DNA of 64,000 nt from an uncultured Gammaproteobacteria bacterium (lineage in GTDB: Bacteria > Patescibacteriota > Microgenomatia > UBA12405 > JAHJSD01). The notes under the pieces were generated by a model that was given only the letters and a program-made list of their open reading frames with translations, did not search any database and was not told the origin of the DNA. The number at the start of each line of letters is the position of its first letter. Within the stretch, counting starts at the first letter, position 1. Of the stretch, positions 2,518 to 62,486 are shown piece after piece. The translations under genes and the position numbers were made by a program. The DNA lies in the NCBI GenBank assembly GCA_964428655.1, contig CAYRYE010000002.1:103472-167471 (forward strand), read 5' to 3'.

Positions 2518-4098
2518 TCAAACCTTATTCTTCATCTCTAATTCTTTAAATTCCCCCCGGTATCTTTCTATTATCTCTTTGGCGATCGGGGCGGCAACAT
2601 AAGAACCGGAGCCGCCGCGCTCAACTAAAACGGTAATTACTACTTCTGGATTATCGCTTGGGTAGAACAGAGTAAACCAGGCATGGGCATCATCAGTGCC
2701 GTCTCCCACCTCGGCGGTGCCTGTCTTACAAGCTACGCGAGGTTTAAAATCAAAAAAGGGAAAGCCTGTTCCACCGGAAGAACAGGCTTCAATCATGCCC
2801 TGTTTAATTAATTCTAAATGCTTTTGTTGAATATTTAGATCGCGGCAATTATCTACTACTGTTAAGTGTGGCTGACAGAGTTTGCCGCCATTAGCAATTA
2901 CTGCTGTTACCGCTGCTATTTGAAGCGGCGTTGTCGTCAAATCGCCCTGGCCAATGGCCAAATGATAAGTATTGCCCAAAAACCAGCGTTCACCCTTTAC
3001 TTCTTCCTTCCATTCTGGCGACGGCAAGAAGCCATTAATCTCCCCAGGCAAATCAATCCCTGTTGGCTCACCCAAGCCAAACCTCCCGGCCCAATCTAGC
3101 AGTCCTTGGGCTCCCAGCCATTCACCCACTTTGTAGAAATAAATATCATTTGATCTCTTAATTGCCCTAATTAAACTCACCATCCCTTCGGTTTGACCAT
3201 ACTGAAGCCAATACCAATTGCCAAACCGCCACTCACCAATTCTTATTTCACCCACATCTTCAACCTCTTTGTCAGCATCAATCTTGCCCTCTTCCAACCC
3301 TGCGGCAGCGGTTATCATTTTAAAGACAGATCCTGGATGATAAGCACCACCAATGGCCCGATTCAACAAGGGCAAATCGCCATCATTTAGTAATTGCCCT
3401 ATCTTCCCCTCATCTCTTCCCTTAGTGAAAATATTAGGATCAAAAGAGGGAGAAGAAACTAGAGCCAAAACTTCTCCATTTTGAGAATTTAAAACTACTA
3501 TCGCCCCTTTTTTGTTTTCAAACGCTTGCCAAGCCGCCTTCTGCCATCTTAAGTCAAGAGTGGTTAATAAATCCCCCCCTGACTGAGATTCCCTTCTCCC
3601 TAACTCCCTAACTGTTTCACCAATGGCAGTAACCTCAACTAATTTCTCTCCTGGTTTGCCCCTCAAGAGCTCATCATAAAACTGTTCTACTCCTCCTCTC
3701 CCTACTAGATCTCCCGATTGTATCCCCTCATTAGCGCTAACCTCCTCTTTTGTTGCTTCTCCTAAATAGCCGCTTAAATGAGCCGTGATTTTGCCCTCTG
3801 GATATTCTCTTAACCAAACCTTTTCTAATTCCTCCCCTTTTGCTTCTAAGCGCAAAGCTTCGCCTCTTTCAACTACTTCACCTTGACTGTCAAAATATCT
3901 AATAGAGTTTCTGACTAATTCTTTGTGGTTTTTATCCGAAATTCGCCCTCTGGGTGCCGGAATTCTAACTCTTTTTATTCTATTGCCTTCGGCGAGCTGG
4001 CGAAAGTAGGCGCCGCGAATGAGCATTAAGTCTGCCGCTCGGGTTAAGAAGAGACCAAAAATAAGAAACAAAAGCCAGTGGAAAAACTTAATAATCAT
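2518..4098 (-). CDS. mrdA: penicillin-binding protein 2 family transpeptidase
   Basis: 526 aa; N-terminal TM helix, SVFK (SxxK) active-site motif, PBP dimerisation plus transpeptidase architecture; immediately downstream of mreBC. Confidence 0.8.
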   Translation of the reverse strand: MIIKFFHWLLFLIFGLFLTRAADLMLIRGAYFRQLAEGNRIKRVRIPAPRGRISDKNHKELVRNSIRYFDSQGEVVERGEALRLEAKGEELEKVWLREYPEGKITAHLSGYLGEATKEEVSANEGIQSGDLVGRGGVEQFYDELLRGKPGEKLVEVTAIGETVRELGRRESQSGGDLLTTLDLRWQKAAWQAFENKKGAIVVLNSQNGEVLALVSSPSFDPNIFTKGRDEGKIGQLLNDGDLPLLNRAIGGAYHPGSVFKMITAAAGLEEGKIDADKEVEDVGEIRIGEWRFGNWYWLQYGQTEGMVSLIRAIKRSNDIYFYKVGEWLGAQGLLDWAGRFGLGEPTGIDLPGEINGFLPSPEWKEEVKGERWFLGNTYHLAIGQGDLTTTPLQIAAVTAVIANGGKLCQPHLTVVDNCRDLNIQQKHLELIKQGMIEACSSGGTGFPFFDFKPRVACKTGTAEVGDGTDDAHAWFTLFYPSDNPEVVITVLVERGGSGSYVAAPIAKEIIERYRGEFKELEMKNKV

Positions 4099-5999: not shown

Positions 6000-7880
6000 A
6001 TGAAACTTTGGGATAAAATAATCTTTTGGACCTACGCCGTCCTCTTCTTTTTGGTTCCCCTGATTCTAAGTCCTTGGAACTACGAGCTTTTTGAGTTTAA
6101 CAAAATGCTGGTTGTTTATTTGGCAGCCGTGGTTATCGGCTGGGCCTGGGTTTGCAAAATGATCACTTGCCGAAAATTCATTTTTCGCTACAGCTTTTGG
6201 GATCTTCCCTTGCTTTTATTTCTAACTTCACAAATAATTTCCACCGTTATCTCCATCGACCGATACACTAGCATTTTTGGCTATTACTCCCGATTCCACG
6301 GTGGGCTGTTATCAACAATCAGCTACCTTTTGCTCTACTGGGGATTGGTGAGCAATCTCGATAAAAAAAAAGCAAGCAGGTTGATTAAAGTTATTCTGAT
6401 TTCCGGTTTATTGGTTTCTCTTTACGGCATCGCTGAGCATTTTGGTATTGATAAAAATCTTTGGGTCCAAGATGTTCAGAACCGGGTTTTTTCAACTTTA
6501 GGCCAGCCAAACTGGTTAGCCGCCTATCTAAATATTCTTATTTTTATTGCTTTGGGACTCTTTATCAATTCCTCCACCGCTCACCCCATCTACTATCTAC
6601 TACTATCTACTATCTACTATCTTTGCCTTCTCTACACTAAGTCCCGTTCTGGGTTCCTTGGCTTTATTATTCCCTTTGTTCTTTTTTTAATTATCAATTT
6701 TTTCCTTTCTCTAAAACAAAAAAAAGATAAGGCAAAACTAAAAAAAATCTCATTAATTCTAACCACATTTATAATCCTTTCTCTTTTAATTGGAACTCCC
6801 TTTAGCCCAAGATTAGGGAAAACCAAAATTAGAAAAACTGAAAATGATCAGACTAAAAAAGAGAGTGTCGATATCACCCCCTCATCCGAAATTCGCAAAA
6901 TTGTTTGGAAAGGGGCAATTGATCTGGGGAAAAAATACCCCTTTTTTGGCACCGGTGTAGAAACTTTTGCCTATAGCTACTATTGGGCCAGACCGGCTGA
7001 GCACAATCTTACCTCCGAATGGGATTTTCTTTACAATAAAGCCCACAATGAGTATTTGAATTTTGCCGCTACCACAGGCACGCTTGGCTTGTTAGCCTAT
7101 CTAACCCTAATTGTCTCTGCTTTAATTTTTACGATTAAAAAATTTCCCTCATGTTTTATATTCTATGTTCTAATTTCTATTTGTATCACTAATTTTTTTG
7201 GTTTTTCCGTTGTTGCTGTCGCTGCTTTATTTTTCCTTTTGCCAGCAATGAGTGTATCATTTAAACCCGCTTCTTTGAAAAAATACAAACTCTGTCTAGG
7301 TAAATTAGAGACAAAAAAATTAATCACGGTGGCCACTATTATTGCCGCTTGGGGAATTTTTGAAATTGCCAGTTACTGGCTGGCTGATTATCACTTTAAT
7401 CAAGGGTACAAATTAGAAAAGGCAGGCTTCCTAGATTCAGGCCTAAGCCACCTCAATAAAGCCGTAAGGCTAAATTCCCATGAGTCTAATTTTTACTCTG
7501 AACGAGCTATCATCCTAGCTAAAACCGCCGCCGCCTTAACCCAAAATGATCAATCTACTGCTGCCACTGAATTAGCCCAACCAGCAATTGAGGACTCTCG
7601 AAAAGCTCTTCAACTCTCCCCCTATCATATCAATTTGTATAAAAACCAAGCCAAAGTTTTCTATTATCTCGCTTTTCATGAATTAAAATATCTCCGGGAA
7701 GGTATAAAAACATTGCTAACGGCTGAGAAACTGGCCCTTACTGATCCTAAAATTCCCTATAGTATTGCCGTTATTTATCAAACCCTAGATGAGAATAAAC
7801 TTGCTAAAGAGTATTTTCAAAAAGCTATAGAATTAAAACCGAATTATGAGGCGGCTAAATCAGCTTTGGAGAAAATTTGA
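6000..7880 (+). CDS. O-antigen ligase (Wzy_C)-like polytopic membrane protein with C-terminal TPR repeats
   Basis: 626 aa; about 12 TM helices, conserved Wzy_C-like loop, C-terminal about 180 aa TPR-like helical repeats; contains in-frame 7-nt tandem repeat at 6598-6633. Confidence 0.65.
   Translation: MKLWDKIIFWTYAVLFFLVPLILSPWNYELFEFNKMLVVYLAAVVIGWAWVCKMITCRKFIFRYSFWDLPLLLFLTSQIISTVISIDRYTSIFGYYSRFHGGLLSTISYLLLYWGLVSNLDKKKASRLIKVILISGLLVSLYGIAEHFGIDKNLWVQDVQNRVFSTLGQPNWLAAYLNILIFIALGLFINSSTAHPIYYLLLSTIYYLCLLYTKSRSGFLGFIIPFVLFLIINFFLSLKQKKDKAKLKKISLILTTFIILSLLIGTPFSPRLGKTKIRKTENDQTKKESVDITPSSEIRKIVWKGAIDLGKKYPFFGTGVETFAYSYYWARPAEHNLTSEWDFLYNKAHNEYLNFAATTGTLGLLAYLTLIVSALIFTIKKFPSCFIFYVLISICITNFFGFSVVAVAALFFLLPAMSVSFKPASLKKYKLCLGKLETKKLITVATIIAAWGIFEIASYWLADYHFNQGYKLEKAGFLDSGLSHLNKAVRLNSHESNFYSERAIILAKTAAALTQNDQSTAATELAQPAIEDSRKALQLSPYHINLYKNQAKVFYYLAFHELKYLREGIKTLLTAEKLALTDPKIPYSIAVIYQTLDENKLAKEYFQKAIELKPNYEAAKSALEKI
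6598..6633. repeat. tandem repeat (ctactat-like 7-nt unit, about 5 copies) inside CDS
   Basis: atctactatctactactatctactatctactatc read directly; encodes HPIYYLLLSTIYY segment. Confidence 0.8.
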
Positions 7881-8732: not shown

Positions 8733-9314
8733 ATGATAATTTCGATTTTTACCATCTTAATTGCTATCTCAATCCATGAATTTGCTCATGCCTGGGTAGC
8801 TAATCGATTGGGTGATCCTACTGCCAGATTAGAGGGAAGAATGACTCTTAACCCCCTGGCTCATCTTGATCCCATAGGAACTATCGCTCTATTTTTAATC
8901 GGTTTTGGCTGGGGCAAGCCAGTTCCTATTGATCCCTATAACCTCCGCCAGCCTCGACGAGATCAGGCTTTAATTGCCCTTGCCGGCCCAATCACCAATA
9001 TCATTTTCGCCATCCTAATCAGCTTTATTTTTAAACTTTTTCACTTTACCCCTATACTTCATACTTTATACTTCATACTAAAAATTAATCTGGCTTTGGC
9101 TTTCTTTAATCTGCTCCCTCTTCACCCCTTGGACGGGTCTAAAGTGGTTCTGGGGTTTTTACCTTTTGAAACAGCGGAAAAATGGGAAGAGTTTTTAGAA
9201 AGGTACAGTCTACCCATCTTATTGACATCTTTTCTGCCAATATTTTCCGGCAAAACTGCCGTTGGTTTATTTTTATTCCCTCTTATCAATTTTTCCCTTC
9301 AACTTTTGATTTAA
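8733..9314 (+). CDS. site-2 protease (peptidase M50) family small membrane metalloprotease
   Basis: HEFAHA (HExxH) in first TM; internal ATG at 8733 preferred over listed 8547 start because the upstream part overlaps rpmB/def antisense; contains 13-nt tandem repeat at 9053-9080. Confidence 0.6.
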   Translation: MIISIFTILIAISIHEFAHAWVANRLGDPTARLEGRMTLNPLAHLDPIGTIALFLIGFGWGKPVPIDPYNLRQPRRDQALIALAGPITNIIFAILISFIFKLFHFTPILHTLYFILKINLALAFFNLLPLHPLDGSKVVLGFLPFETAEKWEEFLERYSLPILLTSFLPIFSGKTAVGLFLFPLINFSLQLLI

Positions 9315-28312: not shown

Positions 28313-29650
28313 TTAAATAGACCTAATAATTCTATCGAACTTTTTTCCTCTATTAAACTCATTAGCAAACATTTCAAAACTAGAGCCTCCAGGAGAGAAA
28401 AGCAAAATGTCCCCACTGCTGCTTAAATTTACAGCCTTATTTGCGGCTTCAGATAAATTATCAAAATCCCAAAATGTTGGAATACTACCTATATTCAGTT
28501 TCTCTACCTCTCTCTTCAATTTCTCCGAACCGCTGCCCCTGAGAACAACAACAGACTTCGGCTTATACATTCTGATCGCTTTGGCCAATGGTCTATAATT
28601 CAGGTCCTTATCTGTACCGCCAGTGAGCAGAATCACTTCTTTGCCCCTGCCGGTAAACCTCTTTAGAGCTACCGCTACTGCTTCCGGAACAGTAGCGCAT
28701 GTATCATTCACTACATGAATTCCATTGAACTTTCCCAAATACATCTGTCTGCCATAAAGGCCCTGGTAGTTTTTAATCGCACCTAAAACAATATCATCAG
28801 AAACATCTAAGTATTTCGCTACTACGGCAGCAAGAAGAAGATTATGCCTGTTATGATCCCCAGCAAGAGGATGGAAATCGCTGAAAACCAAATCTTGTAA
28901 AAAACCAAACTGGGAAAACTTAGGAGTAATAACTTTTTCCAAAGCTTCCTCACTAAATCCCTTAGTCATTTTGTCATAGAAATTGGAAATCAAGAGGTCG
29001 CCTTTATTTTGAAATTTAAAGATTGTCTTCTTAGCATCAACATATTTACCCATGGTGCCGTGACGGTCTAAATGATCTCTCATTATATTAGTTATCACCG
29101 CAATTTGGGGGCTTTGCCGTTTTAACCTCATCCACTCCAACATAAAACTGGATATTTCTAAAACCGAAATAGAGTCTTCATCAAGTTCATCTAAAATATT
29201 GAAAGCAGAAACACCAATATTACCCCCCAGGAAGGCTTTTTTCTTTGCCTTCTTGAGAATTTGATAAATAATATTAGTTGTCGTCGACTTTCCTCTCGTT
29301 CCCGTCACGCCAATTGATAGACCTTTTTTATTGGCAAAAAAGTAAGACATGGGGCAAAAAACCGGAATATTACTTTTAATGGCAGTGTCTATATATTTAT
29401 TACCTGGCGGAACTGCTGGGGAGGCAATTACAATTTCTGCATTCCTAAAGTCTCCTTCCCTATGCTCACCTAAAATAAATTTTATCCTAGAAAATTCTTT
29501 TAAGGCCTTTACCGAAGAGAAAAGGATCTTTTCGTCTTTAAGGTCAGTAACTAGAACATCGCGTCCTTTTTGGGCAAAATATCTAGCGGCTCCTACCCCA
29601 CCCTGGTTCAAACCTAAACCCATTACTAAAATATAGTTCCCACTCATCAC
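28313..29650 (-). CDS. murD: UDP-N-acetylmuramoylalanine--D-glutamate ligase
   Basis: 445 aa; N-terminal Rossmann ILVMGLGLNQGGVGAARY, P-loop GVTGTRGKSTTT; sits between mraY and murC. Confidence 0.75.
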   Translation of the reverse strand: MMSGNYILVMGLGLNQGGVGAARYFAQKGRDVLVTDLKDEKILFSSVKALKEFSRIKFILGEHREGDFRNAEIVIASPAVPPGNKYIDTAIKSNIPVFCPMSYFFANKKGLSIGVTGTRGKSTTTNIIYQILKKAKKKAFLGGNIGVSAFNILDELDEDSISVLEISSFMLEWMRLKRQSPQIAVITNIMRDHLDRHGTMGKYVDAKKTIFKFQNKGDLLISNFYDKMTKGFSEEALEKVITPKFSQFGFLQDLVFSDFHPLAGDHNRHNLLLAAVVAKYLDVSDDIVLGAIKNYQGLYGRQMYLGKFNGIHVVNDTCATVPEAVAVALKRFTGRGKEVILLTGGTDKDLNYRPLAKAIRMYKPKSVVVLRGSGSEKLKREVEKLNIGSIPTFWDFDNLSEAANKAVNLSSSGDILLFSPGGSSFEMFANEFNRGKKFDRIIRSI

Positions 29651-30987
29651 GAGGAAGAAAACTTTTGTCCTTTTAAAAAGGTATCAATTGGTCCAGCGCT
29701 CAAAACAATGATAACACAAGCGGTTTGGCCCTCTTTTTTAAACTCATCCCAGAGTTCTTGGTAGTTTTCTAGCAACTTAACCTTCACTCCATGAGCAACA
29801 ATTCCTTTTTTTACTTCTTTAATGTTTACCCCCTCGACTGCCTCTTTTGATTCTCTGCCTTTAACATAATAAATTGGCAAAAGAATTAATTTATCTACTC
29901 CCTGCCAACAAGTTACAAGCTGGTCAAATAGGCGCCAGGTACGTTCATACTGATGGGGCTCAAAAACAGCTATTAGCCTTTCTTTAGAAAAAACGCTCCT
30001 TAAGGCACTAATTACTGCTTTAATTTGGTCTGGGTGGTGACCATAGTCATTAATCACCACTGCTCGACCAATTTTCCCCATTCTTTCTAATCTTCTTGAG
30101 CAACCAGTGAAGCTAGCCAAGGCTTTGACTGCCTGCCCTGGAGCCACTTTTACTCCTGCTGTTGCCCTAATTGCAGCTAGGGCATTGAAAACATTGTGTT
30201 TGCCCGGCACCTTTAATTCTAATTTAAACTCAGAGCTTCCAAACTTCACCACAGATTCAGAACCCCATTTTTTTGGCTGAAATTTTTCTATCTCTTCTCC
30301 ATATTCTTGAGTTTTTTTGCCCTGTTCCCTTGCTTTAGCTAAGACTTTTTTTACATAAGGATCTTTAACATAACCAATAACTAAAGAGCCCTTCTTCATC
30401 TGAGAAACTAACCGGATAAAGGCTTTAAGCGTGTCTTCTTTGCTTTGATAACAATCAGGATGATCGTAGGCAATATTGGTAATAACCAGAAGATCAGGTT
30501 TTAAAGACAAAAACTGCTTTTTATATTCACAGGCCTCAACAACAAAAATATCACTGGTGCCGCTTCGATATATTCCCTCACCAATAATAGCATTGGGGTC
30601 TCTGCCTATCTGTTCTAAAATAGTCTTGATCATCAAGGTGGTTGTAGTTTTTCCATGGGCACCACAAACAGCAATCGTAAAATAATCAGAAACTGCCTCG
30701 CCCAAAGCTTCGAAATAAGTAGAAGTTTTAATCCCCTGTTTTTTAGCTTCAACAATTTCCGGATGGGACTGGTTGATATTGGGAAAGATTAACCAGTCAA
30801 CTCCCTTCTTAACGTGTTCACGACTATTGCCTTCAAAGAATTTTACTCCTTTTTCAATTAGTGGCTTAGTTCGCTCGTTGACAGCAACATCACAACCACT
30901 GACTTGATAGCCCTTATCATTCATCCACCCTGCCAAAGCACTTAATCCTGCCCCACCAATGCCTAGAAAGTGAACCCGCATTAGCAC
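29647..30987 (-). CDS. murC: UDP-N-acetylmuramate--L-alanine ligase
   Basis: 446 aa; VHFLGIGGAGLSALAGW N-terminus, P-loop GAHGKTTTT. Confidence 0.85.
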   Translation of the reverse strand: MLMRVHFLGIGGAGLSALAGWMNDKGYQVSGCDVAVNERTKPLIEKGVKFFEGNSREHVKKGVDWLIFPNINQSHPEIVEAKKQGIKTSTYFEALGEAVSDYFTIAVCGAHGKTTTTLMIKTILEQIGRDPNAIIGEGIYRSGTSDIFVVEACEYKKQFLSLKPDLLVITNIAYDHPDCYQSKEDTLKAFIRLVSQMKKGSLVIGYVKDPYVKKVLAKAREQGKKTQEYGEEIEKFQPKKWGSESVVKFGSSEFKLELKVPGKHNVFNALAAIRATAGVKVAPGQAVKALASFTGCSRRLERMGKIGRAVVINDYGHHPDQIKAVISALRSVFSKERLIAVFEPHQYERTWRLFDQLVTCWQGVDKLILLPIYYVKGRESKEAVEGVNIKEVKKGIVAHGVKVKLLENYQELWDEFKKEGQTACVIIVLSAGPIDTFLKGQKFSSS

Positions 30988-31526
30988 TCCTTTAATTCCT
31001 GCAAAACTTCAACAAAAATTTTTTCTGTCTTCTCTTCCTTACCAAAAAGCATTAAAACAAAATCTTCTGGTTCAATATTAGCAGGAGGCTTCCCAATACC
31101 AATTCTGATCCGCCAAAAATCTTTAGTCCCTAAGTTTTCGATAACTGATTCTACTCCATGATGCCCGGCGGCTCCTTTTCCAAATTGAATTTTAAATTCA
31201 CCAAAGGGAATGTCCAAGTCGTCGTGAATGAGATATAAATGATTGATGATTGATGATTGCCGTGCGTCGCCAAAGGTTTTGCCGACAACACGATGATTAA
31301 TAAATTTAAGAAGTTTTTTTAGGCAGTTTCCCGATTCGTTCATAAAACAGTTAAGAAAAACTATCTTCCAATTATTCTCCAACCTTATAATTTCTCCACT
31401 CTTTCGACTGTTCACTATCGCCCCATCATTCCGCTTCCTGATTAAATACTGACCAAACATTTTTCCCACATTGTGGCGTGTTTTGGAATATTTCTCTCCA
31501 GGGTTTCCAAGACAGACAAAGATCAT
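30981..31526 (-). CDS. pth: peptidyl-tRNA hydrolase with about 13-aa insertion carrying a repeat element
   Basis: 181 aa; MIFVCLGNPGEKYSKTRHNVG, catalytic His, ...GHNGV-like GHHGV; insertion HRVVGKTFGDARQSSI coincides with tandem repeat 31240-31259 and shared element 31260-31284. Confidence 0.85.
   Translation of the reverse strand: MIFVCLGNPGEKYSKTRHNVGKMFGQYLIRKRNDGAIVNSRKSGEIIRLENNWKIVFLNCFMNESGNCLKKLLKFINHRVVGKTFGDARQSSIINHLYLIHDDLDIPFGEFKIQFGKGAAGHHGVESVIENLGTKDFWRIRIGIGKPPANIEPEDFVLMLFGKEEKTEKIFVEVLQELKEC
31240..31259. repeat. tandem repeat tgattga x3 inside pth
   Basis: tgattgatgattgatgattg read directly. Confidence 0.8.
31260..31284. repeat. 25-nt hairpin-capable element (copy 1) ccgtgcgtcgccaaaggttttgccg, shared with 32479-32503
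   Basis: 24/25 identity with second copy; imperfect palindrome gtcgccaaa/tttgccgac. Confidence 0.75.
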
Positions 31527-31527
31527 T

Positions 31528-31869
31528 CTATTCTCGCTCTACTAGGGATTCTATTATTTCTGCTCCGGCATCCTTTTCTCCAGTCACCCCATCCAAAAAC
31601 TCTTCCAGCCTACGAGTAGCTAGAAATCTATCTTGCGGATCGTTTTGTTCGCCTTTCAAGTGTTTCACAAGAATAACCAAAGCCCCGGCTACTAACGCAC
31701 CATTTTCGTCTGCAATAAGGGCAGCCAAAAGTTGTTTCACTCCTTCTCTGACAGTCTCAACATTTCCCTTTTCTTGTTTCTCTTCTCCAAGGGATCGAAA
31801 ACCCTTAACAACCCCAACTTCTAGAGCTTGTTGCTGACTTTGAAGCTTACTACCTCTATCTTCCGCCAC
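31528..31869 (-). CDS. hypothetical protein (113 aa)
   Basis: Long ORF, no recognised motif; somewhat GC-rich. Confidence 0.35.
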   Translation of the reverse strand: MAEDRGSKLQSQQQALEVGVVKGFRSLGEEKQEKGNVETVREGVKQLLAALIADENGALVAGALVILVKHLKGEQNDPQDRFLATRRLEEFLDGVTGEKDAGAEIIESLVERE

Positions 31870-31892
31870 TTTTTACCCCCTTGCTTTTTAAT

Positions 31893-32279
31893 CTATAATT
31901 TTAACTGCTTTTCTAGATTTTCTAATTCTCCTGGTAATTGCAAATTATTTAAATCTAAATTCTTCGGTAAATTTGGGATATTTGGTGCTGGCATGATTCT
32001 TTCCCACTGAATCTGCTGCAAAGTCTTTTCTACCCAACCACTCATTATGCGGCTCAAATTCATCTGGGAAAAAAGATAAGCAATTACCCCAAAAATCACA
32101 ATATAGCCAAAAAGAGTTCCTAACGTATGAAAAACGCCGGCCAGAAAATTAAAGAAGGCAAATTTAAAAGGATTGGCCGAGTAAATCATGTGCCGGCCGG
32201 AAGTTTTCAACTCACCAAGCTGCTGGTTCAACTTTTTAAGTTGTTCGGTTAAATCTTTCTCTTGCTCCATTGTGGGCAC
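31893..32279 (-). CDS. hypothetical membrane protein (128 aa, 2 TM, coiled-coil ends)
   Basis: Hydrophobic core FKFAFFNFLAGVFHTLGTLFGYIVIFGVIAYLF. Confidence 0.35.
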   Translation of the reverse strand: MPTMEQEKDLTEQLKKLNQQLGELKTSGRHMIYSANPFKFAFFNFLAGVFHTLGTLFGYIVIFGVIAYLFSQMNLSRIMSGWVEKTLQQIQWERIMPAPNIPNLPKNLDLNNLQLPGELENLEKQLKL

Positions 32280-32346
32280 GCCAGGATTCGAACCTGGGAC
32301 CCCTGACTTATAAGATCAGTGCTCTAACCACTGAGCTACGCGCCCG
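32274..32346 (-). tRNA. tRNA-Ile (anticodon TAT as read; AUA-decoding type), no CCA
   Basis: Reverse complement folds as GGGCGCG-TA-GCTC-AGTGGTTA-GAGC-A-CTGAT-CTTATAA-GTCAG-GGGTC-CCAGG-TTCGAAT-CCTGG-CGTGCCC-A. Confidence 0.6.
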
Positions 32347-32369
32347 CCTGTGGCGGCTAAATCTGCTTT

Positions 32370-33656
32370 TCAATTAAAGTATACCAAATTGCCAGCAATT
32401 TCAACAAATTTTATTTTTGTCAACACCGGGTAGCCTGTCCCGACGTTACATCGGGGTTGACTTATACCTAAACACCGGCCGTGCGTCGCCAAAGGCTTTG
32501 CCGGCGGCATGGAGGCAATCGGAATATAATTATCTGATAAGCCTTTGCCATCTGGCCAAACAATGGCCATTGCCTTTTTGCCAATCTGACTTTGCCAGAA
32601 TCGCAAGCGAAGCTCTTTTTCCAGTTTAGCTAATTTTTTGGCCCTAATTTTTTTAGTCCTCTCATCAATTTGATTTTCCATTTCAGCCGCTGGCGTTCCT
32701 TTTCTTAACGAATATCTAAAAATGTGAATTTTGCCAAATTTAATTTTTTTCACAAAGTCTAAAGTTTTCTGAAAATCTTTTTCCGTCTCGCCGGGAAAAC
32801 CAACAATAATATCAGTGGTGATATTCAATCCTTTTCCTATTCTGCGTCGCACAATTTTGACTATTTTTTCGAACTGCTCGGTTGTGTAACACCGATTCAT
32901 TAATTTTAAAATCCGATTACTGCCAGACTGCAAACTCAGATGTAAATGCCTGGCTAATCTATCCCTTCCTATTTTTTTATAAATAGAAATCAGCTTTTCG
33001 ACATCAATCATTGGGTTTATGGAGCCCAGCCGCAAAAGTTTAACATCAGTTTTTTTCAAAACTTCTTCAACCAAGTCAATCCAACTCTTGCCATTATCAC
33101 TGTATTGGGAAACGTTTTGACCGGTTAAAACTATTTCCAAAGCGCCGTTGTTAATTGCTCTCTCTGACTGACAAACTATTTCCTTTACAGGAACACTAAT
33201 AGGTTTTCCTCGAATCAAACAAGGTAAGCAATAACTACAGGCGTTAGCACAGCCGGTTTGGATTTTGATTAAAACTCTTGAATCTTTGTCTCTTTTGCCA
33301 GCCGCGAGTCCTACTGGAGTGTTTTTATTACTAATTTTTTCCCACTTTTTCTCATTCTCCAACAGTTCATCTATTCTCTCTGGAACTCGGCCGCCAAACT
33401 TTTGAATTTTGTCCACCCAACAACCAGCAACTACTAACTTTGCTTTGGGATTCTTACGCCGCAACTGCCGAATCGCCTGCCGAGTTTCTTTCTCTGCCTT
33501 ATGAGTAACTACACAGGTATTTAAAACCAATAAATCTGCCTTCTCGGCCTCTTTTGCTTTCTTCCAGCCACTTCCCAAAAGCAAACCCTCCAGTTTCTGA
33601 CTCTCCGCCTGATTCAACCGACAACCCAAAGTTTGGATATAAAAAAGATTTTTCAT
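32370..33656 (-). CDS. MiaB/MtaB-family radical SAM methylthiotransferase with atypical C-terminal extension
   Basis: 428 aa; N-terminal MTTase domain IQTLGCRLNQAES, radical SAM CANACSYCLPC; C-terminal about 45 aa contains the shared 25-nt element in a different frame from the pth copy. Confidence 0.75.
   Translation of the reverse strand: MKNLFYIQTLGCRLNQAESQKLEGLLLGSGWKKAKEAEKADLLVLNTCVVTHKAEKETRQAIRQLRRKNPKAKLVVAGCWVDKIQKFGGRVPERIDELLENEKKWEKISNKNTPVGLAAGKRDKDSRVLIKIQTGCANACSYCLPCLIRGKPISVPVKEIVCQSERAINNGALEIVLTGQNVSQYSDNGKSWIDLVEEVLKKTDVKLLRLGSINPMIDVEKLISIYKKIGRDRLARHLHLSLQSGSNRILKLMNRCYTTEQFEKIVKIVRRRIGKGLNITTDIIVGFPGETEKDFQKTLDFVKKIKFGKIHIFRYSLRKGTPAAEMENQIDERTKKIRAKKLAKLEKELRLRFWQSQIGKKAMAIVWPDGKGLSDNYIPIASMPPAKPLATHGRCLGISQPRCNVGTGYPVLTKIKFVEIAGNLVYFN
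32479..32503. repeat. 25-nt hairpin-capable element (copy 2) ccgtgcgtcgccaaaggctttgccg
   Basis: see copy 1 at 31260-31284. Confidence 0.75.
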
Positions 33657-33726
33657 ATATTGAAGTTATTTTAACCTAAGAAAGTGAAAAAGTTGAACTG
33701 GCAAAAAGCTAAATTGATTCCTCTGC

Positions 33727-34083
33727 TTATTCTACTGGTTTTACTGGTGTTGCAGAAGCCTCCGGCGATACTTCAGGAACCCTTGCTGCTGGTTGCTCAG
33801 AACCTACAGCTTGAGCAAAGATTTTATCTCTTTCCTGCCGTGCTTCAGCTAACTCCTCTACTGCCTGGTAATCACCTGAGGCAATAGCTTCATCTTCAAT
33901 CTCTTTAAAGAGAGCATCCAAGTAAACCATTACTTCTCGAGAAAGCTCTTCATCCAAGGCCTCCCCTTTGGATAAAGTCTCGACTGCCCCTACATACCTG
34001 GCCCTTACTTCCTCATCCAAGGTATTATCTTCTTTAATAAAATTAATCATTACCTGGAAATAGTTTTTATTATCTTGATCCAT
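33727..34083 (-). CDS. hypothetical acidic protein (118 aa)
   Basis: Asp/Glu-rich, GC-rich ORF paired with the upstream 632-aa gene. Confidence 0.35.
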   Translation of the reverse strand: MDQDNKNYFQVMINFIKEDNTLDEEVRARYVGAVETLSKGEALDEELSREVMVYLDALFKEIEDEAIASGDYQAVEELAEARQERDKIFAQAVGSEQPAARVPEVSPEASATPVKPVE

Positions 34084-43435: not shown

Positions 43436-44503
43436 ATGTTAAAATTAATCAAAGATAATTTAATTATGCCAAACCTAAAGGCCTTTTACCAAAAACAGGC
43501 TAAGAATACTATCCGCTGTCTGGCCTGCTCGCATCATTGTCTGATCCACAAAAGTGAAAAGGGTATCTGCGGTGTTCGAGAAAACAACAAGGGAAAATTA
43601 AAGCTCCTGGTTAAAGGGAAAGCCGTAGGTATGCACCTTGATCCCATTGAGAAAAAACCGCTATTTCATTTTCTTCCCGGAGAAACAGCTTTGTCGTTTG
43701 GCACTCTTGGCTGTAATTTCTCCTGCCAATTTTGCCAAAACTGGACTCAATCCCAATCACCAAAACAAACTGACAATGTCCCTAAACTCATTGAAAAAAT
43801 CAGCCATAATTATTCGCCAAAAGAAATCGTTGATCTGGCTTTAGAATTCAAATCCCCAACCATTGCCTATACCTACAATGAACCAACGATTTTTATTGAA
43901 TATGCTCTGGAAACAATGACTCTGGCCAAAGAGGCCGGCTTGAAAAATGTCTGGGTCAGCAATGGCTTCATGAGCCGCCAAACACGAAAGGCTTTGGCCA
44001 GTAAACTCGATGGTATTAATATTGACCTTAAAAGTTTTAATCCTGATTTCTACCACCAAATTTGTGGAGCCAAAATCGAACCAGTTCTCGACAACATTAA
44101 GTGGCTCTGGAAAAAGGGTGTTTGGGTTGAAGTGACTACTCTGATTATTCCTGACAAGAATGATTCCCCCAGTGAACTGAAAAAGATTGCCAATTTTTTA
44201 AAAGACATCTCTTCCAATTTACCTTGGCACATTACTCCTTTTTATCCCAGCTACAAAATGCTTAATAAACCAAGAACTCCGGCAGAAAAATTACTTGAAG
44301 CTTGGCAAATCGGCAAAAAAGCAGGCCTAAATTTTGTTTACCCGGGAAATATTATTAATGAGGAACATGCTTCAACACATTGCAGCAAATGCGGCCAATT
44401 ATTAATAAAAAGAAGCGCTATTGGAGTAAGGGTAACCAGCAATTTTAAAAATGGCAGTTGTCAAAAATGTAGTCAGAAAATTCCGGGAATATGGCGGCGC
44501 TAA
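43436..44503 (+). CDS. AmmeMemoRadiSam-system radical SAM enzyme, copy 2 (soluble)
   Basis: 355 aa; CLACSHHC...GICGVRENNKGKL, LDPIEKKPLFHFLPG, GCNFSCQFCQNW. Confidence 0.8.
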   Translation: MLKLIKDNLIMPNLKAFYQKQAKNTIRCLACSHHCLIHKSEKGICGVRENNKGKLKLLVKGKAVGMHLDPIEKKPLFHFLPGETALSFGTLGCNFSCQFCQNWTQSQSPKQTDNVPKLIEKISHNYSPKEIVDLALEFKSPTIAYTYNEPTIFIEYALETMTLAKEAGLKNVWVSNGFMSRQTRKALASKLDGINIDLKSFNPDFYHQICGAKIEPVLDNIKWLWKKGVWVEVTTLIIPDKNDSPSELKKIANFLKDISSNLPWHITPFYPSYKMLNKPRTPAEKLLEAWQIGKKAGLNFVYPGNIINEEHASTHCSKCGQLLIKRSAIGVRVTSNFKNGSCQKCSQKIPGIWRR

Positions 44504-46023
44504 AACCAATTCTTATCACTGTTTTCTTAGCTGGAATAATCCTGTTTTTGCTTTTTATTTTTCGCTCCCGAAACAATGATAAAATAACAAAAGAAGAGAT
44601 GAAAACGACTCGCCAATCTGCTGTTTCAGGCAGTTTTTATCCAGCTAATAAAAACGAACTTCAGGAGCAGATCAATGCTTTACTACTATCAAATGAAAAA
44701 ATTACAAATGACCAAATGATTAAATTGTTAGTAGTTCCCCACGCCGGCTATGATTACTCAGGGGCAGTTGCCGCGGCTGGATTCAAACAGATCGAAGGAC
44801 AAACAATCAGCCAAGTAATCATCCTCGGCAGTTCCCATCAAGCCTGGTTCAACGGAGCCGTCATTGATGAAAGCGATTCTTGGCAAACTCCTTTAGGAGA
44901 AGTGGCTCTTGATAAAGAATTGGCTGAAAAACTAATCAATCAAGAAAACGATATTATTTTTTCCTCCAGCCATCATAGCCAAGAACATTCTCTGGAGGTT
45001 GAACTTCCCTTTTTACAAACTGTTCTAAAAAACTTCAAGATTGTGCCAATTCTTTTAGGAAACGCCAATGACCAAACAATTGAAAAATTAGCTGATCTAA
45101 TTACTCAGAACTTTGATGAAAAAACCCTCACTGTTGTCAGCACTGATCTTTCCCACTACCCCAGTTATGATATTGCCCAACAAGTTGATCAAAACACTAT
45201 TAACAGTATTATTTCTGGTGATGTTGTTAATTTTGAAAGAACAATCAGCCAACAAATGAGTATTGGCTACCCCAATTTAGACACTTGTGTCTGCGGCGAA
45301 AAAGCAGTTAAAACAGGCATGTTGATTGCTCAAAAACTAGGTCAGGCAAATTGGCAGCTGGTCAAATATGCCAACTCTGGGGACTCCACTTCGCCAGAGC
45401 TTCGCGGGGCAAGTGAAAGCCGAGTTGTTGGTTATGCGGCAATCATTTGGACGCAAAAAAGCGCTAAAAAGGAACACTATCCGGGATCGTCCCAACTGCT
45501 TTTAAAAATCGCCCGAGAAACTCTTGAAACTCATCTCAAAAACAAGAAAACTCCTGAATATAACATTGATGATCCAAAACTAAATGAAAAACTGGGTGTT
45601 TTCGTCACTTTAAGAAAAAATGATCAACTCCGCGGCTGTATGGGTGATTTTGATCCCAAAACACCACTTTGGCAAACAGTTCAGCGCCAAGCGATTACTG
45701 CCGCCACCGAAGACCCGCGCTTTTCGCCAGTAGGCTATGATGAATTAAAAGAGATTAAAATCGAAATTTCAGTCCTTTCTAAACCTAAAGAAATTGATGA
45801 CTGGCAAAAAATTGAGTTAGGCAAACACGGCGTTGTTCTTCGTCAAGGCAGCCGCGGCGGCACTTTCTTGCCCCAGGTGGCCACAGAAACCGGCTGGGCT
45901 TTGGAAGAATTTCTTTCCCAACTTTGCTCTCAAAAAGCCGGTCTGCCGCCCGAGTGTTATAAAGATCAAAAAACTAAACTTTTAGTTTATACTGCTGAAG
46001 TGCTTGGTGAAAATGGAGATTAG
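44491..46023 (+). CDS. MEMO1-family (AmmeMemoRadiSam protein B) fused to AMMECR1 domain, with N-terminal TM anchor
   Basis: 510 aa; SGSFYPA...VVPHAGYDYSG (MEMO1) then C-terminal LRGCMGDF...RGGTFLPQV (AMMECR1 signature). Confidence 0.8.
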   Translation: MAALKPILITVFLAGIILFLLFIFRSRNNDKITKEEMKTTRQSAVSGSFYPANKNELQEQINALLLSNEKITNDQMIKLLVVPHAGYDYSGAVAAAGFKQIEGQTISQVIILGSSHQAWFNGAVIDESDSWQTPLGEVALDKELAEKLINQENDIIFSSSHHSQEHSLEVELPFLQTVLKNFKIVPILLGNANDQTIEKLADLITQNFDEKTLTVVSTDLSHYPSYDIAQQVDQNTINSIISGDVVNFERTISQQMSIGYPNLDTCVCGEKAVKTGMLIAQKLGQANWQLVKYANSGDSTSPELRGASESRVVGYAAIIWTQKSAKKEHYPGSSQLLLKIARETLETHLKNKKTPEYNIDDPKLNEKLGVFVTLRKNDQLRGCMGDFDPKTPLWQTVQRQAITAATEDPRFSPVGYDELKEIKIEISVLSKPKEIDDWQKIELGKHGVVLRQGSRGGTFLPQVATETGWALEEFLSQLCSQKAGLPPECYKDQKTKLLVYTAEVLGENGD

Positions 46024-47325: not shown

Positions 47326-47357
47326 ATTGATAATTGATAATTAATAATTGATAATTT
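47326..47357. repeat. tandem repeat (tgataat-like units) in intergenic/promoter region
   Basis: attgataattgataattaataattgataattt read directly. Confidence 0.7.
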
Positions 47358-49843: not shown

Positions 49844-52792
49844 ATGGTTAGGAAAAATAAGCCACCAAAAAAATATTTCAAAGAAGTGCCGGCTAAGTTT
49901 GATTTTATTGGCAATGAGAAAACGCTTTTGGATTGGTGGTATAAAAGCGGCGTGGTTAAAAAGTATCTAGATAAAAACAAGGACTCTAAAAAGAGATTCT
50001 CTTTTATAGATGGGCCTATCACCGCCAACAACCCCATGGGGGTTCATCACGCCTGGGGCCGAACCTTGAAAGATTTATATCAGCGCTACAAAAATATGCA
50101 AGGCTTCAAACAGCGCTTCCAAAATGGCTTTGACTGCCAGGGATTATGGATCGAAGTTGAAGTAGAAAAGGAAAGAAAATTTAAAACTAAAAAAGATATT
50201 GAAAAATACGGTATTGCTGAATTCGTTGAAGACTGCAAAAACAGGGTTCGAAAATATTCGAAAGTGCAAATTGAACAATCCAAAAAGCTAGGCTACTTTA
50301 TGGATTGGGGCAACGATTACTACACAATGAGCGATGAAAATAACTACGGCATTTGGAGTTTTCTGAAAAAAGTCTGGCAAGACGACAACCTTTATAAGGG
50401 CCGCGACAGCGTGCCCTGGTGCCCCCGCTGCGGCACAGCTATTTCCCAACACGAAATTTTAACTGAAGAATATAAAAAAATAACACACGATTCAATTTAT
50501 TTTGAACTCCCCATTGTTAGTCGTGACAACGAACGCTTTCTTGTCTGGACAACAACACCATGGACTTTGCCAGGAAACGTTGCTTTAGCTGTTCATCCAG
50601 AACTGGAATATTGGCTAATTAAAGGTTTTACTGGTATAAATTTTTGGATAGCCGGCCCACTAGCTAAAACGGTTTTTAATACTGATGTTAAGGCCATAAA
50701 AAAAATCAAGGGTAATAAATTGGTAGGGCTTAAATACACTGCGCCCTTTGATGAATGGCCTGCTGTTCAGGCCGCCAAAAAAGAAAATCCCAAAACTTTC
50801 CATACCGTAGTCGCCTCTAAAGAAATGGTGGCAGAAGATGAAGGAACCGGAATCGTTCATATTGCCACCGGCTGCGGCACTGAAGATTTCCGCCTTGGAC
50901 AAGAGAAAAAGCTGCCGGTTTTACCAACGATTGATGAAGCGGCTTGCTACCTAAATGGTTTTGGAGACTTAAGTCATAAGAATGCAAAAAACAATCCTCG
51001 ACTGGCTTTAGACCATCCATTATTAAAAGTTAAAGTCGGCAATCCTGCTGAAGACTATATTTTTGAAATTAAACCTTACACCCATCGCTATCCTGTCTGC
51101 TGGCGTTGCCAAACTGAACTCGTCTGGCGGGTAGTTGATGAGTGGTATATTGCTATGGACAATCAGCATCAACCCAAGGCGAAAAACTATCGTCAACGAC
51201 TAATGCAGATTATTAAAAAAGTTCATTGGATCCCCTCTTTTGGCTATGCCCGCGAATTAGACTGGCTTCGCAATATGGAAGATTGGCTCATTTCTAAAAA
51301 ACGCTATTGGGGCTTAGCTTTACCCATTTGGGAATGCTCGTGCGGTCATTTTGAAGTGATTGGCTCAAAAGAAGAATTAGAAAAAAAGGCAGTTGAAGGC
51401 TGGAAAGAATTCATTGGCCACACTCCACACCGACCCTGGATAGACAAAGTAAAAATCAAATGCCCCCAATGCGGTCAATTGATTAGCCGAATTTTAGATG
51501 TGGGCAATCCTTGGCTAGATGCAGGCATTGTTTCTTTTTCTACCCTGAAATATTTTAAAAAGCGTCAATACTGGCAGAAGTGGTTCCCTGCTGACTTAGT
51601 GCTTGAGTGTTTTCCGGGCCAGTTTAAAAACTGGTTCTATTCTCTTTTGGCCATGAGTGCTGTTTTGGAAAAGACAGCCCCTTTTAAAACTCTTTTAGGC
51701 CACGCTCTGGTCCGTGACGAAAAGGGCGAGGAAATGCACAAAAGCAAAGGTAATGCTATTTGGTTTGACGAGGCGGCAGAGAAAATGGGGGTTGACGCCA
51801 TGCGGTGGCTGTATGCGCGGCAGGAACCGAAATTTAATCTCAATTTCGGCTACGGCATTGCTGATGAAGTCAGAAGGCAATATATTTTCCTGCTTTGGAA
51901 CACTTATCGGTTCTTTGTTACCTATGCCAATTTAAATGGTTGGAAACCAAAGAAAAAATGGCCAAATGGTCAAATGGCCAAATGGTCGAAATTGGATAAA
52001 TGGATCTTGTCTCGTCTAGAATCAACTAAAAAAGTCGCTAAAGAAAAACTTGACGACTACCACCATCACGAAGCAATTAAAGCTATTGAAAAATTTCTGA
52101 ATGATCTTTCTTTATGGTACGTTAGAAGATCCAGAGAAAGAGTTAATCCTAACAACAGAGATAAAAAAGACAGAAGCGCTTGCCTCCCCACCTTATATTA
52201 TGTTCTGAAGAACCTCTCTCTAATTCTGGCTCCATTTGTTCCCTATTTAACAGAGACTATTTGGCAGGGATTAACTAATTCTGACAACTCTGTCCACCTT
52301 CAAAATTGGCCAGAAACAAAAAAAGAATTAATTAACAAAAAATTAGAAAAGCAAATGGCATTGGTGCGGGAAATTGTCACTCTCGGTCATAGTCAAAGAA
52401 AGGCAAAGCAAATTAAGGTTAGACAACCATTAAAAAAGTTCAAAGTTCAAAGTTCAAAGTTCAAAGTTAGTGAAGTCTTAATTCAACTAATTAAAGACGA
52501 ATTAAACGCAAAAGAAGTAGAAATTAAAACCGGAAAGGGCGAATTAAAAGTTGAGTTTGATACAAAAATCACCCTGGAACTAAAAGCAGAGGGTGAGGTA
52601 CGAGAATTGATCCGCCAAGTTCAAATCCTGCGCCGCGAAGCGGGATTATCTTTAGACGACAAAATCACTATCCACGCCCCCTCCTGGCCAAAAAAATGGG
52701 AAAAGGAAATACTAACACGAACTGGAGCTAAAGAAATTAAAAAAGGAAAAAAGCTCAAAATTATCACTAATTCTGACTTTAAGAACACCTAA
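49844..52792 (+). CDS. ileS: isoleucyl-tRNA synthetase (type 2-like), with atypical HIGH/KMSKS regions and two internal tandem repeats
   Basis: 982 aa; GPITANNPMGVHHAW aligns to GPPYANGSIHIGH; editing CP1 TTTPWTLPGNVALAV; EMHKSKGN at KMSKS position; WCPRCGT zinc motif. Confidence 0.85.
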   Translation: MVRKNKPPKKYFKEVPAKFDFIGNEKTLLDWWYKSGVVKKYLDKNKDSKKRFSFIDGPITANNPMGVHHAWGRTLKDLYQRYKNMQGFKQRFQNGFDCQGLWIEVEVEKERKFKTKKDIEKYGIAEFVEDCKNRVRKYSKVQIEQSKKLGYFMDWGNDYYTMSDENNYGIWSFLKKVWQDDNLYKGRDSVPWCPRCGTAISQHEILTEEYKKITHDSIYFELPIVSRDNERFLVWTTTPWTLPGNVALAVHPELEYWLIKGFTGINFWIAGPLAKTVFNTDVKAIKKIKGNKLVGLKYTAPFDEWPAVQAAKKENPKTFHTVVASKEMVAEDEGTGIVHIATGCGTEDFRLGQEKKLPVLPTIDEAACYLNGFGDLSHKNAKNNPRLALDHPLLKVKVGNPAEDYIFEIKPYTHRYPVCWRCQTELVWRVVDEWYIAMDNQHQPKAKNYRQRLMQIIKKVHWIPSFGYARELDWLRNMEDWLISKKRYWGLALPIWECSCGHFEVIGSKEELEKKAVEGWKEFIGHTPHRPWIDKVKIKCPQCGQLISRILDVGNPWLDAGIVSFSTLKYFKKRQYWQKWFPADLVLECFPGQFKNWFYSLLAMSAVLEKTAPFKTLLGHALVRDEKGEEMHKSKGNAIWFDEAAEKMGVDAMRWLYARQEPKFNLNFGYGIADEVRRQYIFLLWNTYRFFVTYANLNGWKPKKKWPNGQMAKWSKLDKWILSRLESTKKVAKEKLDDYHHHEAIKAIEKFLNDLSLWYVRRSRERVNPNNRDKKDRSACLPTLYYVLKNLSLILAPFVPYLTETIWQGLTNSDNSVHLQNWPETKKELINKKLEKQMALVREIVTLGHSQRKAKQIKVRQPLKKFKVQSSKFKVSEVLIQLIKDELNAKEVEIKTGKGELKVEFDTKITLELKAEGEVRELIRQVQILRREAGLSLDDKITIHAPSWPKKWEKEILTRTGAKEIKKGKKLKIITNSDFKNT
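51956..51993. repeat. tandem repeat (ccaaatggt/caaatggc 8-nt units) inside ileS
   Basis: aaatggccaaatggtcaaatggccaaatggtcgaaatt read directly. Confidence 0.8.
52438..52468. repeat. tandem repeat gttcaaa x4 inside ileS
   Basis: gttcaaagttcaaagttcaaagttcaaagtt read directly. Confidence 0.85.
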
Positions 52793-61850: not shown

Positions 61851-62486
61851 TTAGGAAGCCATCTCTCTTCTGTTTTCCCAGGCCTGTTTTAAAGTCCAAG
61901 CGTCGGCGTAGTCAAGATCAGCGCCAGTGGGCAATCCCTGTCCAATACGAGTAATCTTAATTTTGGGCTTTGAGTTTTGAGTTTTGAGCTCCCGCAACTT
62001 GCGGGTTATATACATTGCTGTTGCTTCACCTTCCATGGTAGGATTAGTGGCCAAGATTATTTCTTTGATTTCGCTCTTTTTTACCCGATCAAACAATTCC
62101 CTAATGCGCAACTCTTCCGGGCCAATGTGTTCCAAGGGATTAATCACCCCACCCAAAACATGGTAAACGCTATTAAAATCACCCATTTTCTCGAAAGCCA
62201 CAATATCTAAGGGGTGCTCAACAACACAAATTATTGATTGATCACGCTGAGAATCACCACAAATTGAACACGGGTCAGTCTCATCAAGATTAAAACAAAT
62301 TGAGCACTGTTTAGTTTTCCGTTTTAAATCCAACAAAGCTTGAGCAAATTTTTCAATATAATGATTGGGCGTTTGCCACAAATAAAAAGTCAGCCGCGCC
62401 GCCGTCTTTGGCCCAATTCCCGGTAATTGTTCGAAAGTGGTGATTAGATTTTGTAATGATGAAGGTAATTTCATTTCCTCAGCCAC
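61851..62486 (-). CDS. recR: recombination protein RecR
   Basis: 211 aa; HhH LPGIGPKTAARL, C4 zinc finger CSICFNLDETDPCSICGD, Toprim domain; 7-nt tandem repeat (61968-61988) adds a short segment near the C-terminus. Confidence 0.85.
   Translation of the reverse strand: MAEEMKLPSSLQNLITTFEQLPGIGPKTAARLTFYLWQTPNHYIEKFAQALLDLKRKTKQCSICFNLDETDPCSICGDSQRDQSIICVVEHPLDIVAFEKMGDFNSVYHVLGGVINPLEHIGPEELRIRELFDRVKKSEIKEIILATNPTMEGEATAMYITRKLRELKTQNSKPKIKITRIGQGLPTGADLDYADAWTLKQAWENRREMAS
61968..61988. repeat. tandem repeat ttttgag x3 inside recR
   Basis: ctttgagttttgagttttgag read directly. Confidence 0.8.

Follow-up and report, generated by a model that had tools for sequence, protein, structure and literature searches.

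The DNA analysed here, hereinafter the window, is a stretch of 64 kb (contig CAYRYE010000002.1, positions 103,472 to 167,471) from an uncultured bacterium labelled Gammaproteobacteria. The window is AT-rich, with a GC content of 40%. A run of minus-strand genes in the window contains two unrelated genes, pth and mtaB, that carry copies of the same short GC-rich sequence. The gene pth (30981-31526, minus strand) encodes a peptidyl-tRNA hydrolase (Pfam PF01195, E = 1.3e-37). The gene mtaB (32370-33656, minus strand) encodes a radical-SAM methylthiotransferase with Pfam matches to UPF0004 and Radical_SAM. It belongs to the MiaB family and is MtaB-like, with TIGR00089 above cut-off and 336 bits for the MtaB model (NCBIfam). 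The run also includes a murC-like gene (29647-30987, minus strand). Two small open reading frames (ORFs), also on the minus strand, lie between pth and a tRNA-Ile gene with anticodon TAT (32272-32345, minus strand), which sits between mtaB and a DUF5665 gene. tRNA-Ile(TAT) is an uncommon bacterial way of reading AUA.

A 33-nt module is repeated in pth and mtaB

The 25-mer CCGTGCGTCGCCAAAGGYTTTGCCG occurs exactly twice in the window, at 31260-31284 in pth and at 32479-32503 in mtaB (plus-strand reading). The two copies lie on the same strand, ~1.2 kb apart, and are identical at 24 of 25 positions. Dinucleotide shuffles give an expectation of 0 matches, even with 3 mismatches allowed, which excludes that the two copies arose by chance. 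Translated from the minus strand, the copies are read in different frames, as GKTFGDAR in pth and as PPAKPLATHG in mtaB. The original prediction, which was made from the window alone, had reported a repeat in two unrelated genes in different frames, and we verified its coordinates, the 24/25 identity and both peptides. The repeat unit is longer than the predicted 25 nt, however. Specifically, identity among aligned copies reaches a block of 33 nt with the consensus CCGTGCGTCGCCAAAGGCTTTGCCGGCGGCRCG, of which the 25-mer is only the centre, and the flanks beyond the block vary by family.

The two copies in the window differ in their preservation. The module in mtaB (32479-32511, plus strand; minus-strand peptide MPPAKPLATH) is near-intact and matches the consensus at 32 of 33 positions. 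The module in pth (31260-31292, plus strand; minus-strand peptide RVVGKTFGDAR) matches at 29 of 33. All five substitutions, four in pth and one in mtaB, are GC-to-AT changes; the pth copy is therefore the older one and is decaying. The window copies decay under the AT-biased mutation of the genome, and the hairpin itself is therefore not maintained.

The module is a GC-rich (73%) imperfect palindrome. Its palindromic nature agrees with the hairpin-forming element that had been predicted, while the RNA fold is only modestly stable. A 29-nt segment of pth folds with -9.0 kcal/mol (z = -1.1), and a 38-nt consensus segment gives z between 0 and -0.8. The 33 nt correspond to 11 codons and are free of stops in all six frames. 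We considered six-frame stop-freeness as an adaptation and dropped it, as the GC content of 73% explains most of it. A conserved extended stem around the module was also considered, with adjacent complementary runs of at least 6 nt at 5 of 58 copies, compared with 3.6% in controls. It was dropped because those 5 cases are insertions into another palindrome family.

Several further searches were negative. A permissive Rfam 15 scan of window positions 30900-33800 returned nothing overlapping the modules at E <= 10, and a gathering-score scan of 18 loci returned no family except a tRNA. A search for diverged copies (up to 10 mismatches) in the window and ~370 kb of fetched loci (~430 kb in all) found no new sites; its matches are variant-ended or interrupted versions of copies already collected. 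The four translated frames, concatenated as a query, gave no candidates in a protein-database search. The module sequence is absent from the literature that we searched, and nothing specific was found there on palindromic insertions in bacteria of the candidate phyla radiation (CPR).

The module is dispersed among genomes assigned to different phyla

We scanned 185,579 species genomes with the 23-nt pattern GTGCGTCGCCAAAGGNTTTGCCG and found it at 23 loci. A metagenome scan added 46 further contigs. Together, the genome and metagenome copies provide 58 distinct contexts with the same 33-nt core (loci are designated L with a number). A genome-wide search had been proposed in the original prediction, which regarded only two copies, both present in all relatives, as evidence against a mobile element. 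The copies go far beyond two, and alignments of Pth and MtaB, also proposed there, contain homologues of both proteins that lack the module.

The hosts of the genome loci are Patescibacteria (Woese-, Falkow- and Gottesmanbacteria, and unclassified members), Chitinophagaceae including Niastella, metagenome-assembled genomes (MAGs) labelled Gammaproteobacteria, and one Micavibrio. The core is invariant in genomes assigned to these different phyla. Copy density appears low; several genomes have 2-4 copies. Many copies are intergenic and near gene ends.

Two observations concern individual hosts. A near-identical composite repeat of ~100 nt surrounds the module in L006, L010 and L020, from a MAG labelled Gammaproteobacteria, and in L017, from a Gottesmanbacteria contig; this indicates either horizontal transfer of the composite or a problem of binning or labelling. 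In Micavibrio sp. (L023, 2616-2638), the 23-nt pattern, with the same T variant as in pth, lies inside an ORF of 1986 aa. Its flanks do not match the module consensus, and we estimate that ~0.07 chance matches are expected in that scan, so this match is ambiguous between a decayed copy and coincidence.

The module is a discrete insertion

The Gottesmanbacteria contig L017 contains two paralogous copies of one longer repeat, one empty and one filled. The filled copy reads ...TTTTCGCTTCG[33 nt]GAGGGATTTCG..., and the empty copy reads ...TTTTCGCTTCGGAGGGATTTCG.... In longer form, the empty copy is ...AATTTTCGCTTCGGAGGGATTTCG... and the filled copy is ...AATTTTCGCTTCG, then GCCGTGCGTCGCCAAAGGCTTTGCCGGCGGCAC, then GAGGGATTTCG.... 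The two differ by exactly 33 nt; there is no target-site duplication, and the position of the junction is uncertain by one G. A filled site and an empty site whose difference is the element itself are what is expected of a mobile module. Thus, the module is a discrete unit, present or absent as exactly 33 nt, without target-site duplication.

The module lands at the apices of palindromes, at the unit boundaries of heptamer arrays, beside other hairpins and in protein-coding genes. In L027, L040, L064 and other loci, it lies in the middle of a palindrome of another family (CCTGCCTGCCGG|33|CAGGCAGG). It is also found within composite repeats specific to Chitinophagaceae or to Niastella. Conversely, other GC-rich hairpins are inserted into the module in L018, L024, L036, L037 and L054, always after GCCGG. 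Nesting between repeat families therefore occurs in both directions.

The module is translated in frame in pth, mtaB and other genes

In an alignment of 30 Pth sequences, the 33-nt insert is unique to the window Pth (0 of 29 homologues carry it), and the columns of the catalytic motifs are invariant. Compared with orthologues without a heptamer array, the insert comprises 18 aa: the hairpin supplies 11 (RVVGKTFGDAR), and three extra heptamers supply 7; the insertion had been noticed before, with a size of ~13 residues that is too small. Solved Pth structures have a gap of 14 residues at the same loop when compared with the window Pth. In an AlphaFold model with a mean predicted local distance difference test (pLDDT) score of 92 and a predicted template-modelling (pTM) score of 0.88, the insert lies within the loop that joins helix 62-76 to strand 97-103. 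The block mean of pLDDT is 79 at residues 71-80 and reaches its lowest value, 58, at residues 81-90 within the insert; confidence falls only there. The model thus predicts that the Pth fold is retained and that the insert is a low-confidence loop. In the alignment, this loop is a hot spot for insertions in the clade.

At least seven independent assemblies contain the same pth allele, which is therefore fixed and not an assembly artefact. As regards other Pth homologues, P0011 has an insertion of ~40 aa at the same loop, with a GC-rich-looking peptide (…ARLASQPACRAERGGQ…), and P0025, P0018 and P0009 have yet other inserts there.

In the C-terminal domain of the window MtaB, ~16 extra residues precede the final conserved strand (...KIKFVEIAGNLVYFN). 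The original prediction had placed the module in an odd C-terminal tail. The C-terminal location is correct, but because the last strand aligns with the orthologues, the segment is an internal insertion and not a tail. None of the 21 aligned MtaB homologues has the module, and the closest homologue (~62-65% identical) is uninterrupted at this position. Of the ~16 residues, 11 come from the 33-nt block. Another small hairpin, CCCGA-CGTTACA-TCGGG with a 7-nt loop (32439-32456; sequence and fold), lies 22 nt from the module and is probably the source of the remaining ~5 residues; the gap in the alignment suggests that it would be a separate insertion. A similar hairpin (TCCCGAC..GTCGGGA) is found beside the module in L019.

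Overall, the module is in frame in at least 10 Pfam-confirmed genes, in both orientations and in 4 of 6 frames. The Pfam match spans the insert in peptide deformylase (def, L022), arginyl-tRNA synthetase (argS, L066), a methyltransferase (L038), an S41 peptidase (L039) and a metallophosphoesterase (L034). The insert lies between two matched domains in a RarA-type AAA ATPase (L045) and in a GT1 glycosyltransferase (L015), and N-terminal to the domain in an HhH-GPD glycosylase (L002). The four peptide versions are GRASPKALPAAR, PPAKPLATHG, AAGKAFGDARP and RRQSLWRRTA. Four frames and both orientations exclude a common peptide function or a strand-specific RNA function. With 11 codons and no stops, an insertion into a surface loop or linker keeps the frame and is simply translated. 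The module thus behaves as an intragenic palindromic repeat, namely the same repeat in frame in unrelated genes whose orthologues lack it. The prediction of a small mobile or hairpin element that host proteins tolerate, with no shared protein function, is supported by the many genomes, frames and orientations, by the orthologues without the module and by the filled and empty copies of one site in L017.

The module enters tandem heptamer arrays at unit boundaries

In pth, the module is flanked by a tandem heptamer array. ATGATTG x3 occupies 31239-31259 (Tandem Repeats Finder: period 7, 3.0 copies, 100% matches); on the mRNA strand, it is CAATCAT x3, encoding QSSIINH. A fourth heptamer, ATGATTA (31293-31299), lies on the far side of the module, in register with its boundary, and matches the unit of the left flank at 6 of 7 positions. 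The order on the mRNA strand is therefore TAATCAT|33 nt|CAATCAT CAATCAT CAATCAT TTA. Two Pth orthologues have arrays but no hairpin at these codons, namely CT CAACCAT x4 TTA on L070 (P0017) and (CACAAAT/CATAAAT) x4 on L071 (P0012). Because these arrays are uninterrupted, the four-unit pth array predates the hairpin. The hairpin entered the pre-existing array between units 1 and 2, adding 33 nt (11 aa) to the 21 nt (7 aa) by which the array exceeds array-less orthologues. Accordingly, the 7-nt tandem repeat that the original prediction had described in pth is real, but it does not belong to the same insertion as the hairpin. Extra arrays are found elsewhere in or beside the two orthologous pth genes (L071 233-259, GAGTTAC x3.9; L070 1045-1075, TTTTAAT x4.3).

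Other loci have the same arrangement. L015 has AAATTGG x2|33|AAATTGG x2.7, a 54-nt insert in the glycosyltransferase gene, and L062 has ATTTTTG x2|33|ATTTTTA ATCTTTG ATTTTTT. In L039 and L030, the module is likewise exactly at a unit boundary of a heptamer array. Flank identity of at least 6/7 is seen in three cases, compared with ~0.1 expected by our own estimate. Period-7 arrays have a density of 0.50 per kb within 110 nt of modules and 0.08 per kb elsewhere in the same loci, a difference of ~6-fold.

Heptamers dominate the short tandem arrays both in the window and in all module-bearing loci; in 364 kb, 31 of 43 arrays have period 7, mostly with 4-5 units, 4 have period 6 and 5 have period 8. 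As the heptamer differs from locus to locus, the arrays appear to have been generated locally. In the window, the RecR gene (61851-62486, minus strand) contains TTTTGAG x4 at 61961-61988. Compared with the solved RecR structure 3vdp, this array is exactly a 7-aa insertion (LKTQNSK), namely three extra heptamers or 21 nt in frame. Further heptamer arrays are at 52435-52468, 6588-6622, 9054-9079 and 47326-47356 of the window and in L014, L034, L070, L071 and other loci; several of these locus-specific arrays are inside long ORFs.

Discussion

The 33-nt module resembles several families of small repeats. Intragenic repetitive extragenic palindromic (REP) sequences, and REP families common to several species or phyla, have been documented (PMC3733652). 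In the GTAG superfamily, an unpaired GTAG stands at one end of a short palindrome, and no dedicated transposase is known for REPs of the CGTC type (PMC3733652). The GTAG superfamily goes with REP-associated tyrosine transposase (RAYT) genes that the same REPs flank. Neither GTAG nor CTAC was found in the 33-nt consensus or at its junctions. The module also departs from the CGTC type, which has a terminal CGTC, an AT-first stem of 8-9 bp, a loop of 4-5 nt and a CCA tail. Specifically, its CGTC is at positions 6-9, inside the stem and followed by GCCAAAGG..., it has no AT-first stem and no CCA tail, and its predicted folds have a bulged stem and a 3-nt loop. Like REPs and the Rickettsia palindromic elements (RPEs) RPE-4 and RPE-6, the module belongs with GC-rich imperfect palindromes of 20-40 nt that are dispersed, often nested or clustered, and sometimes translated in gene loops. 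Unlike REPs, it has no terminal GTAG tag, no flanking RAYT gene was found in the contigs analysed, its core is identical across phyla, its copy density is apparently low, and its hosts are mainly Patescibacteria and Chitinophagaceae.

Short palindromic elements of Rickettsia were reportedly described by Ogata et al. in 2000. RPE-1 is said to be 'selfish DNA in protein-coding genes', palindromic, in frame in unrelated essential genes and surface-exposed, with protein function kept. It is also said to measure ~100-150 bp, to keep to a single frame and to be confined to Rickettsia. The module shares with RPE-1 the residence of a palindromic repeat in frame in many unrelated essential genes; in contrast to RPE-1, it is 33 nt long and occurs in several frames, in both orientations and across phyla. 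Like miniature inverted-repeat transposable elements, it is short, dispersed, non-autonomous and may sit in genes. These elements are usually >100 bp and have terminal inverted repeats and target-site duplications, whereas the module is a single imperfect palindrome and the L017 pair shows no duplication.

By analogy, the small dispersed repeats SDR1-8 of Nostocaceae would be closest in behaviour to the module. SDRs are very small dispersed modules with hairpin potential and precise insertion, and the module recalls them by its behaviour: it inserts at unit boundaries in heptamer arrays, is enriched near arrays and is nested. SDR5 inserts precisely inside the highly iterated palindrome HIP1 without duplication, and SDRs are 21-27 nt long and reported only in Nostocaceae. 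The module differs in its length of 33 nt, in its other host phyla and in its frequent in-frame residence in housekeeping genes, and it has no known sequence similarity to SDRs. Elhai et al. (Genome Res 18:1484, 2008) reportedly also describe SDRs as nested within one another and as often embedded in tandem heptamers.

As regards the arrays, Geobacter metallireducens has elements of four tandem heptanucleotides, between and within genes, with one fixed heptamer (PMC2700814). These elements and the short tandemly repeated repetitive (STRR) heptamers of cyanobacteria have the same architecture of ~four heptamers as the host arrays of the module, but one heptamer sequence recurs at all sites there, while each locus has its own heptamer here. 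We class the module as a micro-element of the REP/SDR type whose host range is unusually broad and which frequently resides in frame in essential CPR genes. Its behaviour is known in principle; its cross-phylum identity, its exact boundaries and its link with heptamer arrays go beyond the described families.

Our reading is that the 33-nt module is a tiny insertion module of the REP/RPE/SDR kind, dispersed and non-autonomous, and that it is selfish DNA tolerated by proteins; we give this interpretation a probability of roughly three in four. The substrate of insertion would be single-stranded or extruded DNA (hairpins and slipped repeats, for example), and catalysis would occur in trans. HUH Y1 transposases (IS200/IS605 TnpA and RAYTs) are a known class of enzymes that insert hairpin-bearing DNA without target duplication. 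A RAYT-like or IS200-like HUH Y1 transposase is the most plausible catalyst, favoured because the module makes no target duplication and because distant members of this class are present in some module-carrying genomes. Spread across phyla by horizontal transfer together with the mobiliser would be the simplest guess. In protein-coding genes, insertion into loops or linkers keeps the frame, the module is translated, and the copies then decay neutrally by GC-to-AT changes.

The search for the mobiliser gave the following. RAYT-like Y1 genes are located a few kb or less from modules in L058/L059 and in L066, with matches to PF01797 and to NF047646 at 49 and 40 bits, below the cut-off of 80. In L058, two paralogous RAYT-like Y1 genes (2600-3340 and 600-760) each have their own flanking palindromes (TCAAGGCTTAGCCTTGA; TTGCAAGGTCGGACCTTGCA). 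This REPtron-like arrangement is in a Patescibacteria contig, 2 kb from the module, and the genome is common to L014, L047 and L059. In an all-against-all comparison of ORFs, the recurrent neighbours of the module are glycosyltransferases and other common genes, a four-helix-bundle protein of the 23S intervening-sequence (IVS) type, found twice, and the RAYT-like genes in two neighbourhoods. These recurrences are suggestive, not significant.

A number of observations weigh against this interpretation of the module as a mobile, selfish element. No mobilising enzyme is linked to the module: RAYT-like genes are near it in 2 of ~45 neighbourhoods, which is not clearly above chance, the palindromes that flank those in L058 differ from the module, and tblastn found no RAYT-like gene in the 64-kb window. 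No copy of the module was found in the viral contigs, phage records and plasmids scanned. Every assembly with this pth allele has the insert, and no strain-level empty site was found for either window copy. The stability of the core hairpin is not above that of shuffles, and six-frame stop-freeness is common to 33% of shuffles. Apart from the pth copy, there are no copies of intermediate divergence in the ~430 kb searched, and a purely selfish element subject to decay does not account for a core that is completely invariant across phyla. In addition, the assignment of hosts to phyla depends mostly on the binning of MAGs.

The rival explanations fare worse. The same micro-element could instead be copied via RNA, with a hairpin transcript inserted and reverse-transcribed, a route that is reportedly suggested for cyanobacterial SDR elements. 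Precise insertion without target duplication in L017 would fit this route, as would an invariant core, which is expected from a few master templates. However, the all-against-all comparison revealed no reverse transcriptase gene near any copy, both orientations relative to host genes are found among the copies, and there is no Rfam match to a structured RNA; we regard the RNA route as unlikely. The invariance of the core in 58 contexts and different phyla is so striking, and so many copies are intergenic and near gene ends, that selection for a functional motif might also be proposed, namely for a DNA site bound by a protein, an RNA hairpin that acts as regulator or terminator, or a useful peptide. 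Against this, the copies occur in both orientations, four frames and unrelated proteins, with no common peptide or strand-specific RNA; the GC-to-AT changes of the decaying window copies weaken the stem; copy density is low and orthologous sites lack the module; and the fold is no more stable than shuffles and belongs to no Rfam family. A selected motif is thus improbable.

The inserts in pth and L015 are both 54 nt long, the sum of the 33-nt module and three extra heptamers, and the same heptamer is directly on both sides of the module. These features could mean that the heptamers are target-site duplications of the module, with 33 + 7 = 40 nt after insertion and 33 + 21 = 54 nt after addition of two units by slippage. 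The filled and empty sites of L017 differ without any duplication, though, and full four-unit arrays without the hairpin are present in the Pth orthologues of L070 and L071 and common elsewhere, for example in RecR of the window (7-aa insert). The L017 pair and the hairpin-free arrays led us to reject this explanation as very improbable. Least credible of all is a purely local event, whether coincidence, gene conversion between pth and mtaB or an assembly artefact. It would account for two copies that are close together (1.2 kb) and in the same orientation, but not for the dozens of unrelated contigs and genomes, produced by independent projects, in which the same core occurs, for a pth allele in at least seven independent assemblies, or for a chance expectation of 0.

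Little is settled about how REPs, SDRs and other very small repeats move. The exact boundaries of the module, its empty/filled pair, the absence of duplication and its landing preference for heptamer arrays and palindrome apices provide a handle on the mobility of micro-repeats. Because the core is identical in distant phyla, the question of mobility can be addressed by co-occurrence analysis and biochemistry. For the interpretation of genomes, the module would account for odd insertions in essential CPR proteins as translated selfish DNA and not as functional novelty or annotation error, and identical DNA in unrelated genes of a MAG need not signal misassembly. Protein length in these genomes also varies through in-frame heptamer expansions of 21 nt (3 x 7), a second source that has seldom been described.

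We speculate, with considerable doubt, that the module and the locus-specific arrays of ~four heptamers might both be traces of a single undescribed insertion machinery. It would act, in Patescibacteria, Bacteroidota and Proteobacteria, on DNA that is slipped or forms hairpins, and would be a counterpart of the SDR-plus-heptamer association in Nostoc. If so, no horizontally spreading mobile element smaller than the module would be known, and the machinery would be a general source of 7-aa and 11-aa 'extra loops' in CPR housekeeping proteins.

Other GC-rich segments are in frame in further genes of the window. In a trxB-like gene (62471-63424, minus strand), the palindrome CCCTGCCTTGCCGGCAGGCGGGC at 62646-62668 encodes the peptide ARLPARQG. 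The palindrome family of CCCTGCCTTGCCGGCAGGCGGGC is the one that hosts the 33-nt module in L027, L040 and L064, and the Pth homologue P0017 has an insert, LPARQGA. In a Memo/AMMECR1 fusion ORF (44491-46023, plus strand), the segment GGGGACTCCACTTCGCCAGAGCTTCGCGGGGC at 45379-45410 encodes ...DSTSPELRGA.... In L002 and L066, similar modules stand beside the 33-nt block, and the segment may represent a further family of inserted hairpins.

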